A DNA stretch of 55,952 nucleotides from a virus (taxonomy: Duplodnaviria; Caudoviricetes), in IMG/VR virus record IMGVR_UViG_3300012346_000267, positions 1 to 55,952 of that record; one strand, 5' to 3'. Under the pieces are notes generated by a model. The model searched no databases, was not told the origin of the DNA, and saw only the letters and a list, made by a program, of their open reading frames with translations. This document shows, piece after piece, positions 1,553-22,919 of this stretch; positions within the stretch are counted from its first letter, which is position 1; every line of letters starts with the position of its first letter. Both the position numbers and the translations under genes were made by a program.

Positions 1553-4500
1553 ATGAAGTTTAATTCCTTATCAATATCACATGCTATTAATTTTTATAGC
1601 TTTAAAGTTGTATTGAATACATCCTCTACATCCGTTACAAACGAATCAGGAATAGTATTCCATACATTCCTTGATGGTTCCATACAACCACTATTAATGG
1701 GTAACAATACATTAGAAGCCTCTATCACTATTGATGAAATGACAGAGACAGAATTTGCCGACTTAAAATCTTTCTTGATTGAAAATTCTGGGAGTGCTAT
1801 ATACATATCGGAGGAGCATTCAAAGGAAAAACTTTTTACTGAATCGTGGCCATATTTAAACTACTATGCAACCGTTTTAGAAGTAGGTAGCTTTCAACAG
1901 GCAGACTATACACCAACTAGGAGTCTTTATTCATTAGTATTAAAACTATCTTTGATTGGCAATACATTAGAATCAGATGTACCCTTTGTAACTTCATTCG
2001 ACCAATTAGTGAAGATCAATACCATACCTTTAGCAATACATAGCGCAACCGCTCCTGCTTCTCCTTCAGAAAACACTCAGTGGTTTAATACAACCACTAG
2101 AGACTTGAGCGTATACTTAAACTCCGCTTGGAGTAAACTATATACACTCGCTCCTAATTCCACTTCTATTGGTTGGGTCAATGGAGCTTTTCATTTTTCG
2201 TCTTTTAATCAAGCTATACTAAATGACATTACATACATGCCCGGATTTATTACCCATCGAGGAATTGAACTACCAAACAGGTCTATAGATATAGACAAAG
2301 GGCCATCTATTGAATACTTAAACGGTTTTAGATTCTCTATAGATAACAACCATACTGCTCTCTCAGAAAAATTTTGGGACTTTGTTTTGCAAAATAGAAT
2401 GGTTTTATTTGGTGCAGAAATTAAACTATACATATACCATAATAGTACTTACTACTTAAAAATGACTGGTATCAATAAACAAAACTCCTTTAGCTATACT
2501 GACTATACATTCGATGTTGAACCTCTAAACTTTATTAATTCAACATTGTATCCCAATACATACACTCAGAAAAGCCGACCGAGGTTCACCAATACAAAGA
2601 AAGAATTACTAGACAAGCCATCCTTTGTTACATTTGGTAATTGGGATAAAATGGCTTTGCAGGATGTATCTGCTGAAATTTCTAATGTGGTAGGCAATGT
2701 AGCATCCACTGGAACTGAGACAAGTATATTTAATGGCCAAGTATACCAAATAATAGGTCAACCATTAAAGTACATAACAACTTCATTATTGTATAGCATA
2801 CCTCAGGAAGTAGTGGACGATATAAATACAAACCCCTCACAGTACGCAATTTTAATTAATGGATGTACTGCAACCGATACAGAGAATGTAGGTGTCACTA
2901 GAAATGTAGTATCAATAGATAATACCACTGGACAAGCATATCACGCCTTTATTGAATTAGATTACCCAGTACCTACACTTAGTTCAAATATTTTTTATAT
3001 AATTGTAAAGTCCCAGTACCAGTATCAAATGAATGATAATGACCTTCCATCAAATGCAATAGGAACTGACCAATACATATTTGATTCTAAAGATCAAAAG
3101 TTTAAAGAAATACCTTCAGTGGCATTTCAACCTAATGCCGATTTAAATATGCTTACTGTCATTGCCAGTGAAAGTGGTAATATAAGTAAACTTACTGACT
3201 ATGTAGCCATCGGAAATAAATTTCCAAGAACCATGCAAACCAACATGTTACCAATAGGCGGTGATAGTGGATATATATACGACTCAGTTTTGTATGATAC
3301 TCACTTAAATCCGTTTGGTAGAACTGGAGCAAAAGGTTTTATTTTTTATAATGATACATCCTTAGTGGATGACAATACTTCAAAGGATACAGTTGCCCCT
3401 ACATACACATTGACATGCAAGCAATCAATAGCTGGAGGTAGTGAATATGTACCAGCATCTGATGCCAATATATTTGTGGCTGGCTTAAAAATAATTGTCA
3501 ATCATAATAATGATTCCCAATTACTTAATAAAAAAAATATCCGATTATGCTTGGCAGTAAAAATGTCGGCAACTATGAATATCGAAAATACTCCTACATA
3601 TAGAGAAAGACCGTGTGGGTTTTCTTTAGTGGTTAGGTTTGTCAGGTATAATGGAACATACATAGACAATGACGACTGGGTTCATAAACTAGACCATAAC
3701 TATTTAAGTATCGGTAATACTTCACATCCTAATAGACATACTATACATGTTAATAATTTTCCTGATGGTAATAGAGGTACTGGCGGATTCAGTTTAAATC
3801 CTTTACCAATTACAAAATATTATGATGTACAGATAGCAACAATGGGAAGTACTGGGGCACTAAATAGTATCATACTAAACCTACTGGCTAATGACATGGT
3901 ATTCGATACTACCACTTTTCAATTTAAAATGGCTTCAAGGTGGCCCGGAGGTGGCAGGTTTGATTTGGTAGAAGATGCTTATCCGTATCCTGTAGTAGGG
4001 GCAAAGGTATTGTATAATAATGCTATATATACATTCACAGGATTTGGATTAACCTTTCAATACAATGTAGACACTACTGCTTACAATACATTGAGAGGAC
4101 AAGAACTATTTAAACTCGATTCTTTATTTGAAGCCAATGCCCCTTTGTGGTCAGATGTAGCTAGTATTGAAATATGTATGCTTGCCAATGCCTACGAAGA
4201 ACAACCACTATTTAGAAATGCCGATGGTGTCGCTTTTACTACTGATATAACCACTACACAAAAAGGTAGATTATACGACCCTATCACTACTATAAATAAA
4301 ATTCAATTGTTAGACGACCCTACATTGTATGCGGCTGATGAATTTAATATTGAAGGTAAAGTTATTTTTACTTCAGGAACTGGCAGAATACTTACATCAT
4401 TAATAGGTGATAGGACTACTAACCCTAAAGGTATTATTACTGATATAATGAATGAAATGTATGCATCCTCTAAGTGGGACTATTCTACTTTAAACACCTT

Positions 4501-5353
4501 GTTTAATCAGTATAGTAGATCAACTATACAAAGATTTAGAAAGCAATTTGTTAAGCAAGAAAAATCCGAAGCAGTATTGACTGACATACTAGAAGCATTA
4601 TTTGCTTGTGCCATTACTACCCCAGAAAATAAGATAGCTTTTAAATCTTTAGCTTCAGAAGACTATCCTACACCGGCACATGTATTTAACCAATCAAACA
4701 TATTAAATGGTTCCGTGCAAAAGCCCAAGTTTAGGAAAATAGAGAATGTATACCAATCATTTGTGCTTAAGTATGGTGAGTCTCCAGTGGCTCAATTCTT
4801 TTCTACAGAACCAAAGTATTCATTTCAGAATGTATACAAGCCTTCAGATACATTACTGGAACCAGAAATAAGAAATGTATTGAGCCAATCTTCTTTATTG
4901 TATAATAGTAATAATGAATTAGTAAAAGAACTATCATACCATTATGAAAATATACCTACTCAATTTGCTAAAAATATAATAGAACACTATGTATTTAATG
5001 CTTGGACTATTAAATTTTCAGTATCTATAAATCCTTTCTATCTATCCTCTGAAGTAAACTTGATGGACTATGTATCTTTAGCATTAGACTACCATACTAA
5101 TGGTGAAGCATTAGAAGGCTTTATAATTGATATAGAACCTAATCTATATGAAGGGTTTGTTGAACTAACTTTGTTCATCACATCACCACCAGATAAAAAT
5201 GCTTTTGTATGTGAACTACTGAAGGATGCTTTAAACGAAAATAGAGACCTCAATATATTGACAGCGAATGACGCTGGTAATGAAAATAGAATATTAAGCG
5301 AGTATACAGCAGACGATGCAAAAGACGAAAATCGAACCTTTACATGTGAGTAA
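1553..5353 (+). CDS. Large tail-tip / hub / central fibre protein (1266 aa)
   Basis: Size and position after the TMP; C-terminal hub-like segment (LMDYVSLALDY...GFIIDIEPNLYEGFVELTL). Confidence 0.6.
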   Translation: MKFNSLSISHAINFYSFKVVLNTSSTSVTNESGIVFHTFLDGSIQPLLMGNNTLEASITIDEMTETEFADLKSFLIENSGSAIYISEEHSKEKLFTESWPYLNYYATVLEVGSFQQADYTPTRSLYSLVLKLSLIGNTLESDVPFVTSFDQLVKINTIPLAIHSATAPASPSENTQWFNTTTRDLSVYLNSAWSKLYTLAPNSTSIGWVNGAFHFSSFNQAILNDITYMPGFITHRGIELPNRSIDIDKGPSIEYLNGFRFSIDNNHTALSEKFWDFVLQNRMVLFGAEIKLYIYHNSTYYLKMTGINKQNSFSYTDYTFDVEPLNFINSTLYPNTYTQKSRPRFTNTKKELLDKPSFVTFGNWDKMALQDVSAEISNVVGNVASTGTETSIFNGQVYQIIGQPLKYITTSLLYSIPQEVVDDINTNPSQYAILINGCTATDTENVGVTRNVVSIDNTTGQAYHAFIELDYPVPTLSSNIFYIIVKSQYQYQMNDNDLPSNAIGTDQYIFDSKDQKFKEIPSVAFQPNADLNMLTVIASESGNISKLTDYVAIGNKFPRTMQTNMLPIGGDSGYIYDSVLYDTHLNPFGRTGAKGFIFYNDTSLVDDNTSKDTVAPTYTLTCKQSIAGGSEYVPASDANIFVAGLKIIVNHNNDSQLLNKKNIRLCLAVKMSATMNIENTPTYRERPCGFSLVVRFVRYNGTYIDNDDWVHKLDHNYLSIGNTSHPNRHTIHVNNFPDGNRGTGGFSLNPLPITKYYDVQIATMGSTGALNSIILNLLANDMVFDTTTFQFKMASRWPGGGRFDLVEDAYPYPVVGAKVLYNNAIYTFTGFGLTFQYNVDTTAYNTLRGQELFKLDSLFEANAPLWSDVASIEICMLANAYEEQPLFRNADGVAFTTDITTTQKGRLYDPITTINKIQLLDDPTLYAADEFNIEGKVIFTSGTGRILTSLIGDRTTNPKGIITDIMNEMYASSKWDYSTLNTLFNQYSRSTIQRFRKQFVKQEKSEAVLTDILEALFACAITTPENKIAFKSLASEDYPTPAHVFNQSNILNGSVQKPKFRKIENVYQSFVLKYGESPVAQFFSTEPKYSFQNVYKPSDTLLEPEIRNVLSQSSLLYNSNNELVKELSYHYENIPTQFAKNIIEHYVFNAWTIKFSVSINPFYLSSEVNLMDYVSLALDYHTNGEALEGFIIDIEPNLYEGFVELTLFITSPPDKNAFVCELLKDALNENRDLNILTANDAGNENRILSEYTADDAKDENRTFTCE

Positions 5354-5356
5354 TAT

Positions 5357-8152
5357 ATGGCAGATAAAAAATACCAACAACACATAGACGGCACTACTAG
5401 AGCCACTTTGGAACCAGCATTGGTCACTAAAGAAATCGGGTACAATGCAGATACTACTAAGAAGGAGCTTATATATAAAGTCTCCACTGGTGTATATGTA
5501 CATTTTCCTTCAGAGGAACGGCTACTTATTAATAGTACTTCCTCTGGCTCTGGTGCTAACATTATCAATGTATCTAGTGAAACATTCAACCTACTAACTG
5601 CTGGAAGTATACAGAATGTATTTCAACAAATAGATACATTACTAGCTGGTGGAGTAGGTGGTGATAATCTATCCAATACATCGGTAATTTTTGGTATTGA
5701 TGAAGATAATAATTCCACTACCGAGTCCTTTATATGGCGAAATAATGGTTCAAATACATTGATGAAGCTATGGGAGTCAGGAGAGCTAGTACTTGGAGGA
5801 GAAGCTAATCAAAATAAACTAACAATAATTGCTAATACAGCCACTGAAAACACTAGAGGTCTATGTATAGTTAATGAGAATAATACTTTCGCTGGTACTT
5901 CAGAAATCACATTCAACACGGTACAAGATGGGACGACTTCTTTCAGAGCAATGTTAGTAGGTAGTAAGTATGTATCTGGAACAAATACAAATGCAGGATT
6001 AACTGCTAATAACAGAGGTAGATTTGATATATATGTACAAAATAATAACACTATGATTCCAGTGTTTCGTATTGGGTATAATGGTTCTGCTTCACTAGGT
6101 ACATCACAAGCAGGTGCGCAAGCGGATAAATATGACCACACTTCGTTTCCAGATGGTTCATTAGATATACAGGGTAGGATGCTTATTAAGAATGGAGGTA
6201 GTACCGGTTTTGATTCAGTTGATTCGCTAATGGTAAGAAATTCAACCAGTAATCCCGGCATTACATTCTACTCAGAAAGTTCCCCTACTGGAAGGTCTCG
6301 TATACAATCCACAAATACATCCTTAATTGTTAATAGGTTAGTAACTGGTACTACAGATATGCAGATACTAGGTACATCAAGGCTATATATTGAAGCTGAT
6401 GGTGATATTGGTATCGGTACTACAAGTCCTACTGCTGGTTGCGTACATACATTAGGAAAAAATTTAAGAGTAGAAAGAACCGACGATAACTTAACCACAA
6501 GTCTAATAGGCAATGATGGTTCTGCTTTATACTTAAATGAATCATACATACAATACGATTCTGGTTCTCAAGACTTTGAAATAAACCTACCTTACCATGC
6601 GAACTTGGAATATAAGTTATGGGTTTCTGGGGCATCTCAGATATACATCATGGATTATACTAGCTCCCTATTACAGTTTAATTCATTTAATGACATGAGA
6701 TTTGGTATAGATGGTTCAAACCTTAATACTACAAATAAGTTTTCTTGGATAACTAATGGGTCAACTACACTAATGACTTTAAATGAGGCTGGTAAGTTAG
6801 GTATAGGTATAGATACACCAGATTCATTACTACATATATATAGTAGCAATGCTGGTGCTTTTACTGCTTCTGCTAGTTCTTTATTAACTCTTGAAAGTGG
6901 AGATAACTCCTTAATTCAATTTTTAGCCCCTTCTTCAGGTACATCGACTGGAATTGATTTTAGTAATAATGTCACTATATCTAAAGCAAACGACAATAAA
7001 TTAAAGATTAATTCTCCTGAGTATATAGAGATTACAACCACTATGCAACTTCCGGGCAATAGTGGAGGTATAATATTTACAAGTGTAGATATATTCTTAA
7101 ATGGGCCTACTAGATTAATTGCAAGTACTGCGGACAAGGTTCCATTAAGGTTCGGTATAGGAGTAGCGCCTACAAATGCGTTATACATGGACGATGGAGA
7201 TATGTATGCAACTACTGGTGGATTGTTTTATCGTCACTCAGGAACTGCATATAACCTAATTAAACCTACCTCATTCACTATTGAGAATACATCTGGTGTT
7301 GCGAACTTATATATACTTCCAGCTGCTTCCAGTACTGCTGGTATTATGTTTAAAGCAGATGAAAGAGTATCACTCATATTTAACAATGCAGACGATTATT
7401 TAACACTGGCTAACTATGACGCTGGTATGGCTATTACTACTAGCTATCAATTGTCTATATATGGAGCCAATGGAGTAAGTATATCTACTGGCGGTAAAGT
7501 AACTTTGACAAGTTGTTATATAGATTATAACCAACCATTAGCCTTTGGAGATGGTCTCACTGATGGGGATTATAGAACTATCAGAAGTGGAAATAATTTA
7601 GTTACGCAAAGGAGGGAGAGCAGTACATGGGTAACTAAATTAACTGTCACTCCTACTCCAGTAGTTATACTGCCTACCTTTGCGGATGTGATGGCCAATT
7701 GTACATCTACTGCACATAGAACAATTAGTATATTAGAGGCCGATGTATTCTTAATTGAGAATACTATTTCATCGGTTAAATATGACGCAATAAGGGTTAG
7801 TAGTTCTGGAATAATAATAGGTGATGGTAATTCTTCAGGAGTACCGGTAACCATACAAACAGGTTATAATCCATTAGCATTGTCGGCTATCAATACAATG
7901 ACCTTAGACGCTAATGCAATTGAACTAACTGGAACAGTGGATGTAGTAGGAACACTAGATGCTACCAGTGATATATCTTCAGAAGGTGCAATATCCGCTA
8001 CCACTGGTATGTATGCCGGAGGTGTTGTATATATTAATGGTAATGAATCAACTGATAATTCATGGCGTATTGGATACGACACTGGTAATACAAACCTAGT
8101 AATTCAAAAGCGAGTGGCTGGTAGTTGGGTAACAAAGCAGACTATCACATGA
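5357..8152 (+). CDS. Tail fibre / receptor-binding protein (931 aa)
   Basis: GDIGIGTTSP and GKLGIGIDTPDSLLHI fibre repeats; G/S/T/N-rich; internally duplicated modules. Confidence 0.8.
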   Translation: MADKKYQQHIDGTTRATLEPALVTKEIGYNADTTKKELIYKVSTGVYVHFPSEERLLINSTSSGSGANIINVSSETFNLLTAGSIQNVFQQIDTLLAGGVGGDNLSNTSVIFGIDEDNNSTTESFIWRNNGSNTLMKLWESGELVLGGEANQNKLTIIANTATENTRGLCIVNENNTFAGTSEITFNTVQDGTTSFRAMLVGSKYVSGTNTNAGLTANNRGRFDIYVQNNNTMIPVFRIGYNGSASLGTSQAGAQADKYDHTSFPDGSLDIQGRMLIKNGGSTGFDSVDSLMVRNSTSNPGITFYSESSPTGRSRIQSTNTSLIVNRLVTGTTDMQILGTSRLYIEADGDIGIGTTSPTAGCVHTLGKNLRVERTDDNLTTSLIGNDGSALYLNESYIQYDSGSQDFEINLPYHANLEYKLWVSGASQIYIMDYTSSLLQFNSFNDMRFGIDGSNLNTTNKFSWITNGSTTLMTLNEAGKLGIGIDTPDSLLHIYSSNAGAFTASASSLLTLESGDNSLIQFLAPSSGTSTGIDFSNNVTISKANDNKLKINSPEYIEITTTMQLPGNSGGIIFTSVDIFLNGPTRLIASTADKVPLRFGIGVAPTNALYMDDGDMYATTGGLFYRHSGTAYNLIKPTSFTIENTSGVANLYILPAASSTAGIMFKADERVSLIFNNADDYLTLANYDAGMAITTSYQLSIYGANGVSISTGGKVTLTSCYIDYNQPLAFGDGLTDGDYRTIRSGNNLVTQRRESSTWVTKLTVTPTPVVILPTFADVMANCTSTAHRTISILEADVFLIENTISSVKYDAIRVSSSGIIIGDGNSSGVPVTIQTGYNPLALSAINTMTLDANAIELTGTVDVVGTLDATSDISSEGAISATTGMYAGGVVYINGNESTDNSWRIGYDTGNTNLVIQKRVAGSWVTKQTIT

Positions 8153-14209: not shown

Positions 14210-16009
14210 ATGATACTAGCAGTAGATACTGAAACAACTGGATTAAATTGGTTCCATGGTGATAGACCTTATCTTATCTCATATACTAGAGAAGAAATGG
14301 TAACTGATTATATACAAGGATTTGTTAATCCATTCACTAGGGCAGTGACATGGAATGCCGTTGATTTAATAAACTTTCAGCAATTGCTAGACAGTTGCAC
14401 TATTATAATATTTCATAATGCTTCATTCGATATACACATGTTGGAAACCATAGGTATAAAGATTAATAAACCATATATAGATACATTGGTATTCACTCAC
14501 TTAGTTAATAACTCATATATGGAGTACGGACTAAAACCTTTAACTAAAAAGTTATTAGGTATGCCAACACAAGACCAAAAGGATTTAAGTGATTCTACTA
14601 AAGAAGCTAGAAGAAAAGGAAAGAAGTTAGGCTATAAATTAGCCGAGGATGTAGAGGCCGACTACTGGTTAGCTGACCCTGAATTAGTTGTTGAGTATGC
14701 TTGTCAGGATACTGAAAGAACCATGAATCTTTATAAGTATTTAGAAATATGTTGCAAGAAAAGAGACAATGTATGGGAGCTATTAGAAATTGAAATGGCA
14801 TGTACTGAAGCACTAATCAGTATGGAAAGAGTAGGTATATCTATTGATTTGCAAAAAGCAAAAGACTTGGAACAGTACTACGAAACACTAATAGCAATAT
14901 CAGAACATAAAAAAGCAAAGTTAGGATTTGCTTCATTAAATACTAACTCTCCTAAACAAATGATGGATGTATTCTATAATAAGTTAGGAGCAAAGGTACA
15001 CTACGCACAAAGAAAACGGGATGGGGTAAGAATTAAAACGCCATCTATGGATAAGCATGTATTGGCTAAGTTGGCCCCTACATACGAACTGGCGGATGTG
15101 ATTGTAAAAATGAATAGCTATAAGAATGAATTAAATACATTCATTAAACCTTTACAAGTGCTATGTGATGAGCGAGGGGTGGTACATCCTAGCTACCGGC
15201 AAGTAGGAGCCACTACTGGACGGCTATCATGTACTAACCCCAACCTTCAGAATATTAGCAATGTATCTGAGGATAAAAAAGCTAGAGAACTATTCGTGCC
15301 TAGAGCAGGATGTATACTATACTTTCCAGATTACTCACAAATCGAAGTATGGATTGCAGCCTTTACAAGTGGTGATGAAGTAATGAAAAACTACTTATTA
15401 AATGGCCATGACTTACATGGCGAATTAAATAACCAATTCTTTGGAGGAAAGCCAGACTTTAATGAAAATAAAGGTATGTATAGAAAGAAGATCAAAGGAC
15501 TTACCTTTGCTACTATATACGGAGCTGGTGCGAATCAATTATCTGAAATGGGATTAGGACTTAGTGTTGATGAAGGTAAAGACTTTATTAGTAAATTTTA
15601 CACCAAGTATAGTGGGCTGGATAACTACAAAAAGAATCTTATATATGCAGCGGATCAATTAGGATTCATAGAAGATAACTTTGGTCGTCGATACTACATT
15701 GATGAAGGGTTCGCTTTTAAATCTTTGAATTATATGATTCAAGGTTCCGCTTCAGGAGTTATGAAAAGAGCAATTATAAATGTGCATAACTATTGCAAGA
15801 AAATAAAAGGTGCTAACTTGTTATTAACTATCCACGATGAGCTATGTATTGAAATGCCGATGAATGAACATTGTATCGACACTATGAAAGATATTGTAGA
15901 ATGTATGCAAGGTAACTTTCACACATACTTTAATATGCCGAAGCCTTTCGATGTATCAATGGCGGTCACTGAAACTAATTGGGCAGAAAAGAAAGAGGTT
16001 GCACTATGA
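14210..16009 (+). CDS. polA: DNA polymerase, family A, with 3'-5' exonuclease
   Basis: Exo motifs VDTETTG, FHNASFD, YACQD; TTGRLSCTNPNLQNI; motif A DYSQIE, motif B KGLTFATIYG (Phe at the 762-equivalent position), motif C TIHDE. Confidence 0.95.
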   Translation: MILAVDTETTGLNWFHGDRPYLISYTREEMVTDYIQGFVNPFTRAVTWNAVDLINFQQLLDSCTIIIFHNASFDIHMLETIGIKINKPYIDTLVFTHLVNNSYMEYGLKPLTKKLLGMPTQDQKDLSDSTKEARRKGKKLGYKLAEDVEADYWLADPELVVEYACQDTERTMNLYKYLEICCKKRDNVWELLEIEMACTEALISMERVGISIDLQKAKDLEQYYETLIAISEHKKAKLGFASLNTNSPKQMMDVFYNKLGAKVHYAQRKRDGVRIKTPSMDKHVLAKLAPTYELADVIVKMNSYKNELNTFIKPLQVLCDERGVVHPSYRQVGATTGRLSCTNPNLQNISNVSEDKKARELFVPRAGCILYFPDYSQIEVWIAAFTSGDEVMKNYLLNGHDLHGELNNQFFGGKPDFNENKGMYRKKIKGLTFATIYGAGANQLSEMGLGLSVDEGKDFISKFYTKYSGLDNYKKNLIYAADQLGFIEDNFGRRYYIDEGFAFKSLNYMIQGSASGVMKRAIINVHNYCKKIKGANLLLTIHDELCIEMPMNEHCIDTMKDIVECMQGNFHTYFNMPKPFDVSMAVTETNWAEKKEVAL

Positions 16010-16572: not shown

Positions 16573-16794
16573 ATGGCTTTCATAACAGCAGGCGGATTAG
16601 CTAACCAGATTAGAAAAGAATGTGGTATAGCTATATGCGAAGAGAATGATGGTAAAACCGTATTCAGTAAGGAAGAGTTATTGTTAGTAATTGCTTCATT
16701 CACTATGCGAAGGAGACAAGCAGAGGAGAATCTAGTAAAGGAAACAATAAAGCAAACCATACATGAGATGCAGGTTATCAATGGCGGAAATTGA
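16573..16794 (+). CDS. Hypothetical protein
   Basis: AAGGAG RBS; 73 aa. Confidence 0.6.
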   Translation: MAFITAGGLANQIRKECGIAICEENDGKTVFSKEELLLVIASFTMRRRQAEENLVKETIKQTIHEMQVINGGN

Positions 16795-18823
16795 TTACAT
16801 CGGTACATGGGAGTCTTTAGGCTTCGAGTTTAAACGGCATGAGAAAGAGTGTATTACATATAATCCCTTCGATGGTGGGGATAAGAAGATGTATGTCAAT
16901 GCCGAAACTGGTTTGTGGATAGCGTATGGGGTATCTTCACTAAGTGGTAATATGTATACATTCATCGAAATGTATTACGAACACTGCTTAAAGAATACTG
17001 GTATATCTAACTTAACTCCTTTAGCGGACGAAAAAAAGTTGCCAGTACAGGCCTTCTCAGGACAAGTGGCCTATAATAAACTAAACAATACATACCTTAT
17101 TGCCTTCAGAGAATTTGATGGAAAAATAAGAGGTATGCAAAGCTATGTGATCGGTGGGAAGTGTAAGAATGTAAAGGGACTGCAAACTGGTTTGTGGGGT
17201 GCAGAAAAACTAAAAGATAATAAGACTTCTCCAGTATGGGTATGCGAAGGTATATGGGATGCCCTAGCTATGCAGTGGCTTTGTAAGAGTACTGAAGAGG
17301 ATGCTTTAATTACTGCTATACAAGGTGGAAACCCATTTGGATTTAAAGAAGCCTTTGTACCTTTCTTAAATCGTAGGACTGTATATATATGGTATGATAA
17401 TGATAGAGCTGGTTTTGATGGTGAAGAAAAAGTATTCTCTCTACTACATAGGGTAGCAGAACAATTATTATTTGTTAGCTGGCCTGAGATACTAAGAGAA
17501 AAATATGATGTGAGGGACTTCTTAGTAGAGAATGGTGGGTTTCCCGGCTATCCTAAATTAGCTTTGAAAAAAGTAGTCGATACATTGAAGGGATTACTTA
17601 ATAGACAAACTAAGTACCAAAGAACCAGAGACCTAAATAAAGAGCATATACCTGAAGGTGACCTTGCAGTACCTCAGAGACAAGAGGTCGAAGACCTATT
17701 TAATAAATGGTTAAAAATGACAGATAGTGATGCCCTAGCAATTATGTTTGGAACTATATTTGCGAACCGTATATCGACCAGAGACCCTATATGGATGTTT
17801 ATGGTGACCCCTCCAGCAGGTATGAAGACCGAGCTTATATCGAAGCTATGTAAGTCTCCGAGGATTACATCGGTCAACAAACTAACTCCAGCCGGTCTTA
17901 TTAGTAGTTCAGTAATGCGAAACGGTGAAGACCCATCACTACTGAAGGCCTCAGATAAAAAAACTTTAGTGATTACTGACTTCACTACATTGATTGAAGG
18001 CAACCGTATTGTTAGGGATGAAGTGTTCTCTATACTGAGGGATGCCTATGACGGTAAAGTGGAAAAGCAATTTGCTAAATTTAAAAAAGTTATTGAAAGT
18101 AACTTCGGTATATTGGCCGCAGTGACACCTATCATAGATAGTTCCTCAAGTATTAATAGTGCATTAGGTGAAAGATTCCTAAGGTATAGAATCGAAAAAG
18201 ATTTAACACCTTTCGATGAAGAGGCAAGAATGATTAAGGCCATTGGCAATATAGGTGACGAGGGCCAGATGGGAGATGAATTGTTCGATATATGTTATAG
18301 ATACTTAGAGAAAAAAATGCCCGATGTACCTCCTAAACTTAACAAGGATAGATTGATTGAATTAATAAGTACCGCAAAGTTTACTGCTATGCTAAGGGCA
18401 CATCTAATCGAGGACGCACTATTCGGAGAAACACAAGTAATGCCATTCTCAGAATTTGGAACTAGACTAGCAAAACAATTTGTAAAGCTGGCCATGGGAC
18501 TATCTATATACTTTGACCAGTATGATGAAATTAGTGGAGAGGCTTTGAGACTAACTAAAGAAGTTGCTCTCGATACATGTCCTCAGATTACACTAGAAAT
18601 GGTTCGCAGTGTATATATACTGAACAAAGAAAACGGTAAATGTACATGTAATGATGTATCGGAAAAATTAGGTCTATCGAATACAACCATCACTAGGAGA
18701 GCTGGAAGGCTTACTCAATTGAATATTTTTAAAAGAATAAACGACGGATTTGGCAAAAAACAATACTACCAGCTATCCGAAACAGTGGAAAATTTAGTCG
18801 AAAAAGCGGTACTATTTAAGTAA
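16781..18823 (+). CDS. Primase-helicase (TOPRIM + AAA-like + C-terminal winged HTH)
   Basis: VWVCEGIWDALA and WYDNDRAG TOPRIM motifs; TPPAGMKT Walker-A-like and LVITDFTT Walker-B-like motifs; ERFLRYR arginine finger; C-terminal HTH (VSEKLGLSNTTITRR). Confidence 0.8.
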   Translation: MAEIDYIGTWESLGFEFKRHEKECITYNPFDGGDKKMYVNAETGLWIAYGVSSLSGNMYTFIEMYYEHCLKNTGISNLTPLADEKKLPVQAFSGQVAYNKLNNTYLIAFREFDGKIRGMQSYVIGGKCKNVKGLQTGLWGAEKLKDNKTSPVWVCEGIWDALAMQWLCKSTEEDALITAIQGGNPFGFKEAFVPFLNRRTVYIWYDNDRAGFDGEEKVFSLLHRVAEQLLFVSWPEILREKYDVRDFLVENGGFPGYPKLALKKVVDTLKGLLNRQTKYQRTRDLNKEHIPEGDLAVPQRQEVEDLFNKWLKMTDSDALAIMFGTIFANRISTRDPIWMFMVTPPAGMKTELISKLCKSPRITSVNKLTPAGLISSSVMRNGEDPSLLKASDKKTLVITDFTTLIEGNRIVRDEVFSILRDAYDGKVEKQFAKFKKVIESNFGILAAVTPIIDSSSSINSALGERFLRYRIEKDLTPFDEEARMIKAIGNIGDEGQMGDELFDICYRYLEKKMPDVPPKLNKDRLIELISTAKFTAMLRAHLIEDALFGETQVMPFSEFGTRLAKQFVKLAMGLSIYFDQYDEISGEALRLTKEVALDTCPQITLEMVRSVYILNKENGKCTCNDVSEKLGLSNTTITRRAGRLTQLNIFKRINDGFGKKQYYQLSETVENLVEKAVLFK

Positions 18824-18840
18824 AGAAATGTCAAGTAATT

Positions 18841-18984
18841 TAAAATTTAAGCTATTTTTTAAAAAGTAGCTTAAATTTTAAGTACTAAAATTTGAGTTTT
18901 TTGAGGTTTTATAGCTAAATTTGGGTTTATTTAGGCAATTATTTTTACTTTTTTATAAAAAAAATCACTTTTTTATAAAAAAGT
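18841..18984. promoter_or_regulatory. Palindrome cluster (candidate operators or replication origin)
   Basis: TAAAATTTAAGCTA...TAGCTTAAATTTTA inverted repeat at 18841-18880; two ACTTTTTTATAAAAAA copies at 18947 and 18967. Confidence 0.5.
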
Positions 18985-19021
18985 ATGTATTTTTAGTCTC
19001 TACTTAATTAGAGAGTAGTTA

Positions 19022-19070
19022 AACAAGTAACAAGTAACAAGTAACAAGTAACAAGTAACAAGTAACAAAG
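19022..19070 (+). repeat. Heptamer tandem repeat (AACAAGT)x6 plus AACAAAG
   Basis: Directly visible; abuts the first hammerhead. Confidence 0.95.
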
Positions 19071-19132
19071 TCTAATTGATAAGGATTTAATATCCGAAAC
19101 TATACATCTATTAAGTATGTATAGTCTTAGAC
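19070..19132 (+). ncRNA. Type I hammerhead ribozyme 1 (U3-A8 core variant); predicted cleavage after C19126
   Basis: Stem I GTCTAA/TTAGAC; core TTGATAA; stem II GGAT-TTAAT-ATCC; GAAA; stem III CTATACAT/ATGTATAG; GTC triplet. Confidence 0.88.
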
Positions 19133-19170
19133 AGTGCAATGTCGCACATCTAAAAACAAAGGAGTCATTT

Positions 19171-19563
19171 ATGACACAAGTACAAACCACCCCAGCCGTT
19201 GAACTAACATACACCGATGGCGTATTAAATTGGCGCAAGGGCAATACATACCTACCTGACCTGACCAAGGAAGATTTCTTGGTACATGGCAATGGTGTAG
19301 AAAAGTATGAAAGCAAAGAGCAATTCAATGCAATCAAAAAGCAATTCTATACATATATGGCCATGTTTAAAACAGACCGAGCAATCAAGTTTAAAACTAT
19401 GGCCGATGAACTATTTTCAGCAAGTGCCGAGTATACCAAGAAAGCTAACAACATTGGCAAGGAACTATCTCCAGAGGAAGTACTGGCCGAGAAAAAAGCC
19501 AAACTACTCAAGCAATTGGAAGCCCTTAACGCAACAGCTGAAGCCCAAGGTATTGAAATTTAG
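19171..19563 (+). CDS. Hypothetical protein lying between hammerheads 1 and 2
   Basis: AAAGGAG RBS before ATG 19171; C-terminal coiled coil. Confidence 0.8.
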   Translation: MTQVQTTPAVELTYTDGVLNWRKGNTYLPDLTKEDFLVHGNGVEKYESKEQFNAIKKQFYTYMAMFKTDRAIKFKTMADELFSASAEYTKKANNIGKELSPEEVLAEKKAKLLKQLEALNATAEAQGIEI

Positions 19564-19571
19564 TTTGCCAC

Positions 19572-19611
19572 TATACATGTATGCCTTCACCAGGTATACA
19601 TGTATATTTTT
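19572..19611 (+). terminator. Intrinsic terminator-like hairpin
   Basis: TATACATGTATGCCT / AGGTATACATGTATA 15-bp stem (one G-U pair) followed by TTTTT. Confidence 0.55.
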
Positions 19612-19614
19612 AAA

Positions 19615-19671
19615 GTCTAACTGAAGAGGATTTAATATCCGAAACAGGTATGCTATATACATGTATTAGAC
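19615..19671 (+). ncRNA. Type I hammerhead ribozyme 2 (canonical C3-G8 core); predicted cleavage after A19665
   Basis: Stem I GTCTAA/TTAGAC; core CTGAAGA; stem II GGAT-TTAAT-ATCC; GAAA; stem III CAgGTATG/TATACaTG with one mismatch; GTA triplet. Confidence 0.88.
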
Positions 19672-19695
19672 ACAACAAAAAACAAAGGACAAAAA

Positions 19696-20037
19696 ATGAA
19701 ATACACCCACAAAGAAATAGTGGCATTATTCGACAATGCACAAGAGGATTTTAGAAATAGTATTCAAGCCATTGGCGAGGCTAATAGTGAAATACGCTCC
19801 GCAGAACTATTGGTAGAGCGTACACTAAAACAAATTGAGAACCGCAAAGTTAAGCTCCAGATACTTTCAGAGAAAGCGAACCACGCCAAGGAGCGTATTG
19901 CCCAATTTACCCCATACATAGGCGAAAGCAGAGTACTAGTGAGAGAGGAAGCCCGTATACTAGCTAAGATAACTGAATTAGATACCGCCCTAGCAAAAAG
20001 GCGCAAGGTATACAAAGACTGGAAGGAGCTGGTATGA
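19696..20037 (+). CDS. Hypothetical coiled-coil protein lying between hammerheads 2 and 3
   Basis: AAAGGA RBS; 113 aa, all-helical composition. Confidence 0.75.
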   Translation: MKYTHKEIVALFDNAQEDFRNSIQAIGEANSEIRSAELLVERTLKQIENRKVKLQILSEKANHAKERIAQFTPYIGESRVLVREEARILAKITELDTALAKRRKVYKDWKELV

Positions 20038-20111
20038 TTATATACAACATTGCTTTAATAGTAATACTGGGCTTTTTGCTTAAAGATGTACTAAGCAATA
20101 CCAAAGTCTAA
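20034..20111 (+). CDS. 25-aa hydrophobic peptide MIIYNIALIVILGFLLKDVLSNTKV
   Basis: AAGGAG RBS; ATGA overlap with the upstream stop; its own stop codon lies in stem I of hammerhead 3. Confidence 0.55.
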   Translation: MIIYNIALIVILGFLLKDVLSNTKV

Positions 20112-20163
20112 TTGATAAGGATTTAATATCCGAAACCACTTATGTATATAAGTGGTCTTAGAC
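20106..20163 (+). ncRNA. Type I hammerhead ribozyme 3 (U3-A8 core variant); predicted cleavage after C20157
   Basis: Stem I GTCTAA/TTAGAC; core TTGATAA; stem II GGAT-TTAAT-ATCC; GAAA; perfect stem III CCACTTAT/ATAAGTGG; GTC triplet. Confidence 0.9.
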
Positions 20164-20191
20164 AATACATATTAATAACAAAGGAGCGTAT

Positions 20192-20506
20192 ATGTCACAA
20201 CCTATATTAAGTAGGGAAAAATTACTTTTAAAAGCCAAGCGGTTTTTAGAATTGAAAGAACTGACTAAACAAATAACAGGCGAGCTGGATTCTATACATG
20301 AGGAGCTATGTATAGTAGCAAAGACCGACTCGGCTAGGACAATATGTTTAGAAGAGGCTGGTAGTAATCATTCTATCCGTATTACTTTAGATACAGCCAT
20401 TAGAAATACTTTCGATAGTGCTAAGTTTAAAGAAGACCACCATGATACATGGTGTCAGTATTTAAAGGGTGGTACAGTTGAAACCTTAAGAGTAGTAAAG
20501 GTATAG
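20192..20506 (+). CDS. Hypothetical phage protein
   Basis: AAAGGAG RBS; N-terminal coiled coil and FDSAKFKEDH...YLK C-terminal motif seen in small phage proteins. Confidence 0.7.
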   Translation: MSQPILSREKLLLKAKRFLELKELTKQITGELDSIHEELCIVAKTDSARTICLEEAGSNHSIRITLDTAIRNTFDSAKFKEDHHDTWCQYLKGGTVETLRVVKV

Positions 20507-20515
20507 GATACATAC

Positions 20516-22063
20516 ATGAGAAAGAAACCAGTAAAAATAATTCGTATTGAAGAGACTCCTATGGGGCATGACATGAAACCAATGGGAGATGCTAAAGAGG
20601 AACAGAAAGATAATTTTTCAGGTAAACTTGAAGCCTTAATTGATTTAGTTCATCGTACTAAAGATTTTAAAATAATGGGGTTTACCTCCTCAGTATTGAA
20701 AAAAGAAATGAATAAAGATGTATTCATTTCTTATATACATAACACTATTAAAAGTGAAGTGGCAGCTAGATACATGTTGACAGAACTAGAACAATATTTA
20801 GGTATACATGGAGACGACCAATCACCTTTGCCTGAAGAGGAAGAGGAAGAGGAAGAGGAAGAGGAAGAGGAAGAGGATAATCAAAAAAAACTGAGAGACT
20901 ACTTAGAGCAGATACCAGCACCAGTACCTCCCAAAGAAACACCTGTACCTGAAGAGGGTGATATATATACTCAGGTTCAAAAGTATTTAGACCTTGAGTT
21001 TGATCCTTCTAAGGACGACCCTATGCAATACATGAAAGATAACTTTATTGCCACAGAGGAAGAATTACAAGCTATACATGATAGGTTAACAAAGTGCGAA
21101 AGGAATATAGCTGACCTTAAACTAATGGACAATAAACTTGAATGTAAAATTACTGGTTTGGAAAGTACAATAACTACTGACCTAGCAAGTATATATGCCA
21201 AGTTGGATGTATTGGCTAAAGGTATTGGTACTGGTGTATCTGGCGAGTATGTAATCAAGTATCCTGAAGGTGATATAAAGAAGATTACCAAAAAACTTCC
21301 GGCATGTTGGACTAAGTTACTTGATTTAGTAACGACTAGAGACAATATATTCCTCGCTGGCCCTACACAATGTGGAAAGACTACCACCGCAGAAATGGTA
21401 GCGGATGCAGTTGGATTGAGATTCAGTTCTCTGTCATGTAGTGAAGGTATGGACGAAAGTTTATTCGCAGGTACATTACTGCCAGTAGGCGAGTTAGGAA
21501 AATTTGAGTATGTACCTAGTACCTTTGTAGACTTCTATGAGAATGGTGGTGTATACTTACTAGATGAATTTTGCGCTAGTGATAGTAACCTATCTATATT
21601 TATTAACAATGCCATAGGGAATGACCACTTCTTTCTTCCCAGAAGATACGCGAACCCCAGAGTGGAAAAGCACAAAGACTTCGTATGTATAGCCGCAGAC
21701 AATACATTAGGTCATGGTGGCGACGATGTATATGTAGGTCGTAACCAATTGGATGCCAGTACATTAGAAAGATTTAGAACTGGCTTTATAGTGATGGACT
21801 ATAATAATGCTATTGAAAAATCAATTAGTGATCCTGAAGTGTATGACTGGTGTATACTGATTCGCAATGCTATACATAAACTAAAACTTAAAAGGCACAT
21901 GACAACTAGAACTATGAAACGATTCACTATAATGAAGAGGGAAAGGAATTGGAATCTAGTTGACATGCAGAGTGTATACTTCGCAGATTGGCAGAAAGAC
22001 GATGTGAAGCGTATACTACAAATTGTCCAGCAAGACATTAGTGCGCAGTTAGGAAAGAAGTAA
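20516..22063 (+). CDS. MoxR/CobS-like AAA+ ATPase with long acidic, coiled-coil N-terminus
   Basis: GPTQCGKT Walker A, GGVYLLDE Walker B, HKDFVCIAADNT, YVGRNQLDASTLERF. Confidence 0.85.
   Translation: MRKKPVKIIRIEETPMGHDMKPMGDAKEEQKDNFSGKLEALIDLVHRTKDFKIMGFTSSVLKKEMNKDVFISYIHNTIKSEVAARYMLTELEQYLGIHGDDQSPLPEEEEEEEEEEEEEEDNQKKLRDYLEQIPAPVPPKETPVPEEGDIYTQVQKYLDLEFDPSKDDPMQYMKDNFIATEEELQAIHDRLTKCERNIADLKLMDNKLECKITGLESTITTDLASIYAKLDVLAKGIGTGVSGEYVIKYPEGDIKKITKKLPACWTKLLDLVTTRDNIFLAGPTQCGKTTTAEMVADAVGLRFSSLSCSEGMDESLFAGTLLPVGELGKFEYVPSTFVDFYENGGVYLLDEFCASDSNLSIFINNAIGNDHFFLPRRYANPRVEKHKDFVCIAADNTLGHGGDDVYVGRNQLDASTLERFRTGFIVMDYNNAIEKSISDPEVYDWCILIRNAIHKLKLKRHMTTRTMKRFTIMKRERNWNLVDMQSVYFADWQKDDVKRILQIVQQDISAQLGKK
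20834..20875 (+). repeat. (GAAGAG)x7 microsatellite encoding a poly-Glu tract
   Basis: Directly visible within the AAA+ gene. Confidence 0.9.
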
Positions 22064-22064
22064 T

Positions 22065-22919
22065 ATGTATCTACAGGAACTACCAAAATTCGATACATTG
22101 ATGCAGTACCATGACGGATTCACATCCGTCGCTAATCTGGAAGCACATCCTAACAACCTTGAAAAGTTTAGGGAAACAACTAACAGGAGCCAAAGGGAAA
22201 TGAAGGACTGGTATGGAGCGAACTCTATACTAGAACTGAGAACTACATGCGAACTGCATGGATGGACAGAAGGCCTCGCAAGAGGCCAACACATACTAGG
22301 TGATATTAAAGCACCTAAGTTACCATCATACAAGCGTAAAAGATGTAAGGGTATGACAGGTCACTCTCTTAACATTACCGCTATATATAATGGCAATTTT
22401 AATAAGGCTTGGAGTACTGCAAAGAAGATACCAACTTCGGACAGGACTAAGAAAGCTGGTAAGGTTAATATTGCAATCAGTATAGATGCCTCATGCGGTA
22501 AATCGGCAGAAACTTTTTTCTGGAGAGGAGCCGTAGGATGTATGCTTGCGAAAGCATTACAAACCAGTGGACGAAATGTAGCTATGTATACAGTGGCTAA
22601 CCAGAGGGATTTATTTGTCAATGGTGAATTTAAATACTCCTTACTCCTTACTAAGATTAAAGACTATGGATACCCATTGGAAATGGAAAGATTATTTTCA
22701 ATGACAGCCTACGCGGGTTTCTATAGGTACTATATGTTTAAGGCCATGTGCGCTTTTGAATACAAGGTAGATGGTGGACTAGGTTATCCTAACCATGTAT
22801 CTTCCGAACTCATTCAGGAAGCGGTACAAGACGACGCTCCTACAATAATAGTGGCGGATATATGGAATGAGAATCAAGCCAAGTCCGCAATCAATACATT
22901 ACTAGAACAATTTAATTGA
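22065..22919 (+). CDS. VWA-like (CobT-like) partner of the AAA+ ATPase
   Basis: NIAISIDASCGKS MIDAS-like strand; directly follows a MoxR/CobS ATPase. Confidence 0.6.
   Translation: MYLQELPKFDTLMQYHDGFTSVANLEAHPNNLEKFRETTNRSQREMKDWYGANSILELRTTCELHGWTEGLARGQHILGDIKAPKLPSYKRKRCKGMTGHSLNITAIYNGNFNKAWSTAKKIPTSDRTKKAGKVNIAISIDASCGKSAETFFWRGAVGCMLAKALQTSGRNVAMYTVANQRDLFVNGEFKYSLLLTKIKDYGYPLEMERLFSMTAYAGFYRYYMFKAMCAFEYKVDGGLGYPNHVSSELIQEAVQDDAPTIIVADIWNENQAKSAINTLLEQFN

Follow-up and report, generated by a model that had tools for sequence, protein, structure and literature searches.

We have investigated a 55,952 nt stretch of viral DNA (Duplodnaviria; Caudoviricetes; IMG/VR record IMGVR_UViG_3300012346_000267, positions 1 to 55,952), hereafter referred to in its full length as the window, in which three elements with the layout of type I hammerhead ribozymes, designated HH1, HH2 and HH3, occur within 1.1 kb, upstream of three genes designated A, B and C. 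The window is a virus genome that is 95% complete (CheckV), and its + strand carries all family-annotated open reading frames (ORFs) as well as all genes flanking the hammerhead array. Two very large ORFs occupy the left genome end, a replication/recombination module follows and, beyond a stretch of small genes and genes of unknown function, the terminase, portal and head genes are located (Table 1). The hammerhead array opens this intervening stretch. This agrees with the original prediction, made by a model from the letters of the DNA, which had placed the array at the start of the accessory gene region: the replication module lies upstream and small genes of unknown function lie downstream.

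All three elements were found where the original prediction had located them, starting at 19070, 19615 and 20106, and share a common order: GTCTAA, a 7 nt core, GGAT-TTAAT-ATCC providing a 4 bp helix II with a 5 nt loop, GAAA, a copy-specific stem III, T followed by C, A or C in HH1, HH2 and HH3, respectively, and TTAGAC. Approximately 30 nt are identical across the three copies. Parsing of each sequence yields the three-way junction of a type I hammerhead, helices II and III being capped by loops and helix I being open to the flanks. All conserved core positions are present in HH1-HH3, including G12, A13 and A14 of the GAAA and U16.1 in 3/3 copies, the sole departures being the paired change of C3-G8 to U3-A8 in HH1 and HH3 and the non-G position 17 (H17 being C, A and C). 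The CUGANGA core originally assigned to the array is present in HH2, as CUGAAGA, and is absent from HH1 and HH3, which carry UUGAUAA as a result of the C3-G8 to U3-A8 double change. The layout of HH2 is that of HH1, with one G.A mismatch and one G.U pair in stem III and with TA (H17 = A) preceding the cut site, while HH3 possesses a perfect 8 bp stem III and TC before the cut site. Recomputation of the predicted cut positions (after 19126, 19665 and 20157), of the leaders that would remain in front of the ATG codons at 19171, 19696 and 20192 (44, 30 and 34 nt, respectively) and of the RNAs that would be released (539 and 492 nt) reproduced the original values, and the ribosome binding sites are intact, with AGGAG or AAGGA located 6–7 nt before each ATG. 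The description of the array as one ribozyme per gene holds approximately, as a 113 aa ORF and a coupled 25 aa ORF are both located between HH2 and HH3 and the genes after 20506 lack a ribozyme. The 17-mer GGATTTAATATCCGAAA, common to the three copies, occurs three times in the window compared with 0.26 times expected, a number not reached in any of 100 shuffles (0/100), and all occurrences are on the same strand (3 forward, 0 reverse).

Table 1. Positions of the predicted hammerhead elements, neighbouring genes and other features. Positions refer to the window unless a locus is named; bit scores are from covariance model R1.
Feature	Position	Strand	Details
Hammerhead 1 (HH1), type I, U3-A8 core variant	19070-19132	+	64.1 bits, E 4.6e-14
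HH1 helix I	19070-19075 with 19127-19132		GTCTAA / TTAGAC
HH1 core	19076-19082		UUGAUAA
HH1 helix II and loop	19083-19095		GGAT-TTAAT-ATCC
HH1 GAAA	19096-19099		
HH1 stem III	19100-19124		8 bp, 9 nt loop
HH1 U16.1 and C17	19125-19126		predicted cut 19126/19127
Hammerhead 2 (HH2), type I, canonical core	19615-19671	+	core CUGAAGA; 67.3 bits
HH2 predicted cleavage	19665/19666		
Hammerhead 3 (HH3), type I, U3-A8 core variant	20106-20163	+	core TTGATAA; 70.3 bits, E 1.1e-15
HH3 predicted cleavage	20157/20158		
U3-A8 ribozyme in marine contigs	L078:426-493; L094:2935-3002 (-); L095:13147-13214 (-)		one sequence common to all three
Two very large ORFs (1266 and 931 aa)	1553-8152		left genome end; no PHROG family at E up to 1e-5
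Replication/recombination module	9-19 kb		helicase, exonuclease, Sak4-like protein, polymerase, Toprim/primase-like ORF
Family A DNA polymerase	14210-16009	+	
Toprim/primase-like ORF	16763-18823	+	
AT-rich 16 bp palindrome CTTTTTTATAAAAAAG	18948-18983	+	two adjacent copies; gap upstream of HH1
Perfect tandem heptamer AACAAGT	19022-19068	+	6.7 copies; 100% matches, score 94
Gene A, 130 aa	19171-19563	+	Shine-Dalgarno AGGAG 19160-19164
Terminator-like 15 bp hairpin and T-run	19572-19606	+	follows the gene A stop; 8 nt before HH2 helix I
Gene B, 113 aa	19696-20037	+	predicted helical; Shine-Dalgarno AAGGA 19685-19689
Possible small ORF, 25 aa, hydrophobic	20034-20111	+	ATG overlaps gene B stop (ATGA), translational coupling
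Gene C, 104 aa	20192-20506	+	Shine-Dalgarno AGGAG 20182-20186
AAA_5 ATPase gene	20516-22063		directly follows gene C, no ribozyme between
DUF7192 gene	22065-22919		follows AAA_5 ATPase gene
Terminase, portal and head genes	from 38 kb		

The predicted fold is supported by relatives of the three elements. An exact scan of IMG/VR for the helix II 17-mer identified, in 90 stretches (loci L001-L090), 102 sites, 82 of which possess a YYGANRA core directly upstream of the 17-mer. The full architecture, consisting of 6/6 helix I pairs, U-H and a stem III of at least 3 bp, is present at 81/82 of these core-bearing sites, a count made with no pre-filter for pairing, compared with 1/82 when the downstream sequence is reversed, 0/82 when it is shuffled and 5/82 when the helix I strand is swapped from another site. 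Covariation was assessed in an alignment of 57 distinct sequences, composed of 54 of the 61 distinct ribozymes from the loci and the 3 window copies, with the remaining 7 ribozymes, in which stem III exceeds 36 nt, left out. In this alignment, 99.9% of cells pair, compared with 69.9% in column shuffles and 25–45% when the partner strand is slid, a percentage which is partly circular as the sequences were pre-filtered for pairing and for which the 81/82 count provides the cleaner test. The covariation score is 0.689 compared with 0.127 in shuffled alignments, and double-sided changes are observed in 11/16 pairs (helix I, 6/6; helix III, 5/6). Helix II covaries as well, in the copies found with a covariance model, where the pairings GACU/AGUC, GGUU/AACC, GCCU/AGGC and GUCC/GGAC are present. 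This model, R1, was built from the alignment of the relatives and scored with filters off. In the window, R1 detects exactly three matches, at 64–70 bits, the next best match scoring 15 bits, and in the 90 loci (793,757 nt) it detects 168 matches at E values up to 0.01.

Folding of the individual elements is consistent with this picture for two of the three copies. The minimum free energy (MFE) structure of HH1 alone is the exact three-way junction, at −15.2 kcal/mol (z −2.7), and that of HH3 alone is likewise the three-way junction, at −16.1 kcal/mol (z −4.2), with 0/200 shuffles being as stable. A hairpin is located 7–8 nt upstream of HH2 and HH3, and none is present before HH1. The architecture observed at 81/82 sites, the covariation, the changes in helix II and the specificity of R1 bear out the type I hammerhead identity originally assigned to the elements, and the compensatory changes in all three helices of the relatives agree with the accompanying proposal that selection acts on structure and not on a DNA binding site. 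Combined, these results strongly support the three elements as genuine type I hammerhead motifs, for which catalysis is predicted from sequence.

The U3-A8 core of HH1 and HH3 is rare in this subfamily. In the filtered set of 107 distinct sequences, comprising relatives and window copies, positions 3 and 8 are C..G in 104 and U..A in 3, with 0 mixed combinations, and two of the three U3-A8 entries are the window copies. U3-A8 is the double change that preserves the C3-G8 tertiary pair. Natural covariation to U3-A8 in the core has been reported, and such covarying variants are cited as already known to be active in vitro (PMC3088659). HH1 and HH3 would be expected to be active. The dinucleotide preceding the cut is UC in 91/107 and UA in 16/107 sequences. 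The residues that directly flank helix I on its 5′ and 3′ sides are A in 107/107 sequences each, and the middle (third) position of loop II is A in 103/107, the outer loop U residues being imposed by the filter. Covariation between loop II and the helix I flanks gave no signal in the 107 sequences; the invariance of these positions is suggestive of the tertiary contact, between loop II and helix I or its flanks, which natural hammerheads need for rapid cleavage at physiological Mg2+. A U3-A8 ribozyme matching HH1 and HH3 in helix I, core and helix II, and thus outside stem III, occurs once each in L078 and two ocean metagenome contigs (L094 and L095). A single weak match aside, the contigs carrying this ribozyme have no proteins in common with the window, which suggests either exchange of a ribozyme module with an unrelated marine phage lineage or strong convergence.

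Strict filtering retained 129/153 aligned matches, representing 106 unique ribozymes in 53 genome groups. One copy is present in 29 groups, two in 9, three in 10, four in 2, five in 2 and eleven in L018, numbers which are lower bounds, the loci including only roughly 5 kb flanks. Multi-copy groups are found among the IMG/VR relatives; a search of related phages for the same array had been suggested with the original prediction. The position of the ribozymes with respect to genes is consistent. In 97/106 cases, the cut site is followed at a distance of 10–49 nt by an ORF that starts with ATG and comprises at least 35 codons, compared with 420/2120 random same-strand positions, and the upstream reading frame stops inside the ribozyme or within 9 nt of its start in 84/106. 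These stop-to-start placement counts indicate that the ribozyme, together with a short Shine-Dalgarno leader, constitutes the intergenic region. When 185,579 prokaryote genomes were scanned for an exact 22-mer, 0 matches were obtained, and hence neither prophage copies nor an indication of the host.

Helix I sequences differ less within than between genomes, the mean Hamming distance being 1.14 and 2.88, respectively. Copies with the same helix I and a different stem III occur in 11/24 multi-copy groups, compared with a mean of 3.8 and a maximum of 8 in label shuffles, none of which (0/1000) was as high. In the L071, L024 and L010 groups, helix I is different in all copies. Thus, helix I tends to be genome-specific, not universally so, and stem III and often helix II tend to vary between copies. 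The densest array was observed in a 22,483 nt IMG/VR contig, where at least 11 distinct type I hammerheads are spaced ∼280–450 nt apart over ∼6.3 kb (L018:2286-8611, +). R1 produces 14 matches in this contig, 12 with 6/6 helix I pairs, and 7/11 distinct copies share the helix I sequence GTAATA with differing helix II and stem III. Arrays resembling that of L018 occur in L087 and L090.

The regions between and around the ribozymes contain additional features. The gap upstream of HH1 is 246 nt long and AT-rich, and includes the CTTTTTTATAAAAAAG palindrome, for which 2 matches (≤2 mismatches) were found compared with 0.09 expected, with no occurrence elsewhere in the window; it is situated where a promoter for the ribozyme-led operon would be expected, and may serve this transcription unit, headed by HH1, as an operator or promoter element. 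The AACAAGT repeat adjoins the primase-like gene and ends one base before HH1; it might represent an iteron-like array or, if transcribed, no more than a portion of the leader that HH1 would remove. The TTGATA present inside the core was considered as a sigma-70 promoter and rejected, because CTGA occupies this position in HH2 and in the majority of relatives and the promoter scan made no call. The terminator-like hairpin between gene A and HH2 forms in a 141 nt context fold. Stem III of HH1 and HH2 consists of TATACATGTAT-like sequence, which is also found in the arms of this hairpin; alternative pairings between them are therefore conceivable. Downstream of gene B, the possible 25 aa ORF ends in a TAA stop that coincides with the final 3 nt of the helix I 5′ strand of HH3.

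None of genes A, B and C belongs to a family of known function, and weak sub-threshold matches were obtained for B and C only. Word-indexed homologue searches with the three genes returned self-matches exclusively. Gene A matches no Pfam or PHROG family, and an exhaustive phmmer search detected 12 distant homologues of similar length. Atlas searches with genes B and C named no family, the nearest Atlas clusters of gene C being unnamed phage proteins. The genes following gene C are tightly packed, the gaps being 9 and 1 nt, and lack ribozymes, and a perfect (GAAGAG)x7.3 repeat at 20834-20877 within the AAA_5 ATPase gene encodes a glutamate run. At the level of the genome, megablast of 16700-22100 against a phage collection gave no match, and neither the AAA_5 protein nor two homologues of gene A, used as queries, retrieved any viral contig. 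Comparison of the window proteins by tblastn with the 90 loci and L078, L094 and L095 produced weak matches only, involving the polymerase in L026 and L029 and the ORF at 9363-10703 in L095 (E 6e-6).

We consider it probable that HH1-HH3 are type I self-cleaving hammerheads in a + strand operon, which cut the transcript into insulated cistrons. Protein-independent intercistronic mRNA processing is likely to be their function, and is the most likely one considered here; it matches the published reading of phage hammerhead clusters (PMC3088659). In the proposed mechanism, a + strand operon starting after the replication module would transcribe all three ribozymes, and each copy would fold co-transcriptionally through its 6 bp helix I, its 4 bp helix II with a UUAAU cap and its copy-specific helix III. 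Self-cleavage would then occur after C17 or A17, at 19126, 19665 and 20157, the HH1 cut removing the primary leader with the heptamer repeat and the HH2 and HH3 cuts removing the preceding cistron. The downstream message would keep a defined 5′-OH leader of 44, 30 or 34 nt which starts with UUAGACA and retains the Shine-Dalgarno box. The upstream piece would retain its stop codon, so that ribosomes would never run off the cut end, and would terminate in a compact ribozyme body with a 2′,3′-cyclic phosphate. The pay-off would be that the stability and translation of each cistron become independent of its neighbours, of upstream read-through and of host nuclease. Cleavage would be expected to occur in vivo and to affect mRNA stability and translation; a review describes the insulation of cistrons by phage ribozymes as a suggestion awaiting proof (PMC6765202).

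Several observations weigh against this reading. No Rfam hammerhead model reaches an E value of 10 on 18900-20400, and RF00163 searched alone against the whole record likewise produces no match. HH2 is able to form the three-way junction but, unlike HH1 and HH3, when folded alone adopts a competing structure in which the core CUG is paired with the stem III CAG, at −10.0 kcal/mol (z −1.2), and, given this competing MFE fold and a weakened stem III, HH2 may be slow or conditional. A sigma-70-like promoter scan of the + strand upstream of HH1 called none. Among public sequencing runs, none containing RNA was listed for the window, the sole match being one DNA run with 5% of the sampled words. 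Because the terminator-like hairpin at 19572-19606 lies 8 nt upstream of HH2, this ribozyme and everything downstream of it may be reached by read-through only. To these must be added the partial circularity of the pairing percentage in the 57-sequence alignment, and the fact that the proposed effects on stability and translation lean on general knowledge of 5′-OH ends and of engineered ribozyme insulators.

The Rfam result reflects a limit of the curated model and not the absence of a defining ribozyme feature. Comparison of the window with the Rfam hammerhead models, as suggested with the original prediction, was performed at the gathering threshold and at E values up to 10, and no hammerhead family matched; at the gathering threshold, no family of any kind is detected in the whole window. 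Two snoR160 alignments, on HH2 and HH3, appeared at E up to 10 and were rejected as being at chance level. The relatives are nearly as inaccessible to these models: in five related loci with 29 R1 matches, 4 are detected by RF03152 (RAGATH-1-hammerhead) or RF00163, all below gathering, with scores of 30.5–42 bits for RF03152 compared with a threshold of 56.3 and of 31.5 bits for RF00163 compared with 34. Hammerhead_1 (RF00163) and RAGATH-1 both resemble the window copies in their type I topology and catalytic core, and the RAGATH-1 consensus also places an A-rich linker ahead of a helix I that is short, together with an extended stem III. The extra 5′ hairpin of RAGATH-1 is however not enriched upstream of members of the window's subfamily, being found at 26% compared with 19% of control positions, and the window has no match to RF03152 at E up to 10, which does not place the three copies in RAGATH-1. 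In one locus, a sub-threshold RAGATH-1-hammerhead match of 34.4 bits (L030:7538-7652, +) is not reported by R1, so that this locus contains one or more additional hammerheads differing in helix II.

The fate of the cleavage products could be different from that proposed above. The released gene-sized RNAs, 19127-19665 and 19666-20157, could be circularised, either through the reverse (ligation) reaction of the hammerhead or through an RtcB-type ligase of the host, as occurs for retrozymes and viroid-like agents, a possibility which we regard as highly improbable. It is true that the three copies agree in polarity and in helix I sequence, such that the 5′ end produced by one copy can rebuild a hammerhead with the next, and helix I sharing within genomes extends to 11/24 multi-copy groups compared with a shuffle maximum of 8. 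However, several multi-copy relatives (L071, L024, L010) have an all-different helix I, so that a need for end-to-end docking is not conserved. In addition, the 95%-complete record encodes neither RtcB nor an RNA ligase of the Rnl2 type, the units are ordinary Shine-Dalgarno-led protein genes with no terminal repeats beyond the ribozyme, and spliced or circular products were sought in phage clusters and went undetected, according to PMC3088659 (data not shown there). Thus, the circular coding RNAs envisaged originally are unsupported, in view of the missing ligases, the often non-matching helix I and the negative published search. Searches for a T4 Rnl1-type ligase and a single-subunit RNA polymerase gave no match, but their controls matched nothing anywhere either. 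A broader proposal would see in these elements a large subfamily of aquatic-phage intercistronic hammerheads, missed by curated models, in which the genome-specific helix I provides a shared 5′-OH tag (UUAGACA) and a shared ribozyme body, allowing docking, circularisation or re-joining by ribozyme or RtcB, or recognition of the tag by a factor of phage or host origin; we judge this combination to be decidedly unlikely.

Other explanations concern the elements themselves. They could be hammerhead-derived, with the U3-A8 copies or HH2 being slow, conditional or dead, and the array thereby functioning as a point of regulated or partial processing. The competing MFE structure and the stem III G.A mismatch of HH2 are compatible with this, as is the rarity of U3-A8 in the subfamily (3/107 distinct entries, two in the window), and slow core variants in phages have been noted and regulation suggested in PMC3088659. 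We nevertheless consider reduced activity unlikely, as U3 and A8 always change together (104 C..G, 3 U..A, 0 mixed), which is what selection for an active core predicts, the same U3-A8 ribozyme persists in marine phages of an unrelated lineage, and PMC3088659 states that activity in vitro had already been shown for ribozymes covarying at positions 3 and 8. Alternatively, the repeats could be selected mainly as DNA, either as recombination joints for mobile gene cassettes or as protein-binding sites, with the RNA fold being incidental. In accord with such a role, ∼30 nt are identical among the three copies, a ribozyme identical outside stem III precedes unrelated genes in unrelated phages, and the ribozyme-flanked genes are orphans or nearly so. 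Selection as DNA leaves unexplained, however, the compensatory changes in all three helices, the strict strand bias (3 forward, 0 reverse), the invariant catalytic core and the fixed distance to the next start codon, and its probability appears exceedingly low. Recombination at the repeats may well occur as a side effect.

Processing of mRNA by self-cleavage would have functional counterparts in other systems. RiboJ-type insulators are synthetic, derived from a satellite RNA hammerhead, and their cut makes the 5′ end of a message uniform irrespective of context, while intercistronic sites in phage T7 mRNA are cut by host RNase III, leaving 5′-phosphate ends. The resemblance of the window ribozymes to RiboJ and to the T7 RNase III sites is one of functional analogy only, in which the window elements would represent the host-enzyme-independent counterpart. 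A closer relationship exists with clustered hammerheads, including triple same-strand arrangements, that flank phage genes and for which processing into single-gene mRNAs has been proposed (PMC3088659, Perreault et al. 2011). In that work, three tandem arrangements, one of them triple, were shown to cleave; cleavage was observed in vitro and, in the case of the Agrobacterium tumefaciens triple, also in vivo in E. coli. As in the window, the genes flanked by the prophage clusters of Clostridium scindens, Azorhizobium caulinodans and the A. tumefaciens ardA locus are small, variable and mostly of unknown function (PMC3088659). Those prophages reside in cultured bacteria and their cleavage has been shown, whereas the window array derives from an uncultured virus known from its sequence alone. 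The window array is also distinguished from the prophage clusters by being entirely type I, by its invariant helix II and loop and by the U3-A8 core in 2/3 copies. The impression given originally that a serial gene-flanking array is little known must be revised, as such arrays have been in print since 2011, including triples and the U3-A8 core (PMC3088659).

Type I hammerheads with a long helix III have been placed in bacteria and phages, and intergenic examples a few nt before a start codon have been described in RNA viruses, in a paper of 2026 (PMC13725137). The latter resemble the window elements in being type I with a long helix III, in occupying a short stretch between genes and in that the cut leaves the downstream ORF on its own RNA. 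They differ in having eukaryotic hosts, in a proposed role of aiding cap-independent translation initiation and in the reported lack of the usual loop-loop contacts, whereas the window has a DNA genome, Shine-Dalgarno boxes and an invariant loop II and helix I flanks. The signature of the subfamily described here, its near-invisibility to Rfam and its arrays of at least 11 copies are not obviously in print, as judged from a literature search which did not extend to the figures and supplements of PMC3088659.

The window array leaves the current picture of what phage hammerheads are unchanged, and adds to it a compact example with three copies in 1.1 kb, two of which have the rare U3-A8 core. 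In addition, Rfam-based counts of ribozymes in viromes are suggested to be underestimates. The role of self-cleaving ribozymes in bacteria and phages was still described as ‘largely elusive’ in a 2019 review (PMC6765202), and the subfamily provides a good substrate for testing phage hammerheads as natural cistron insulators.

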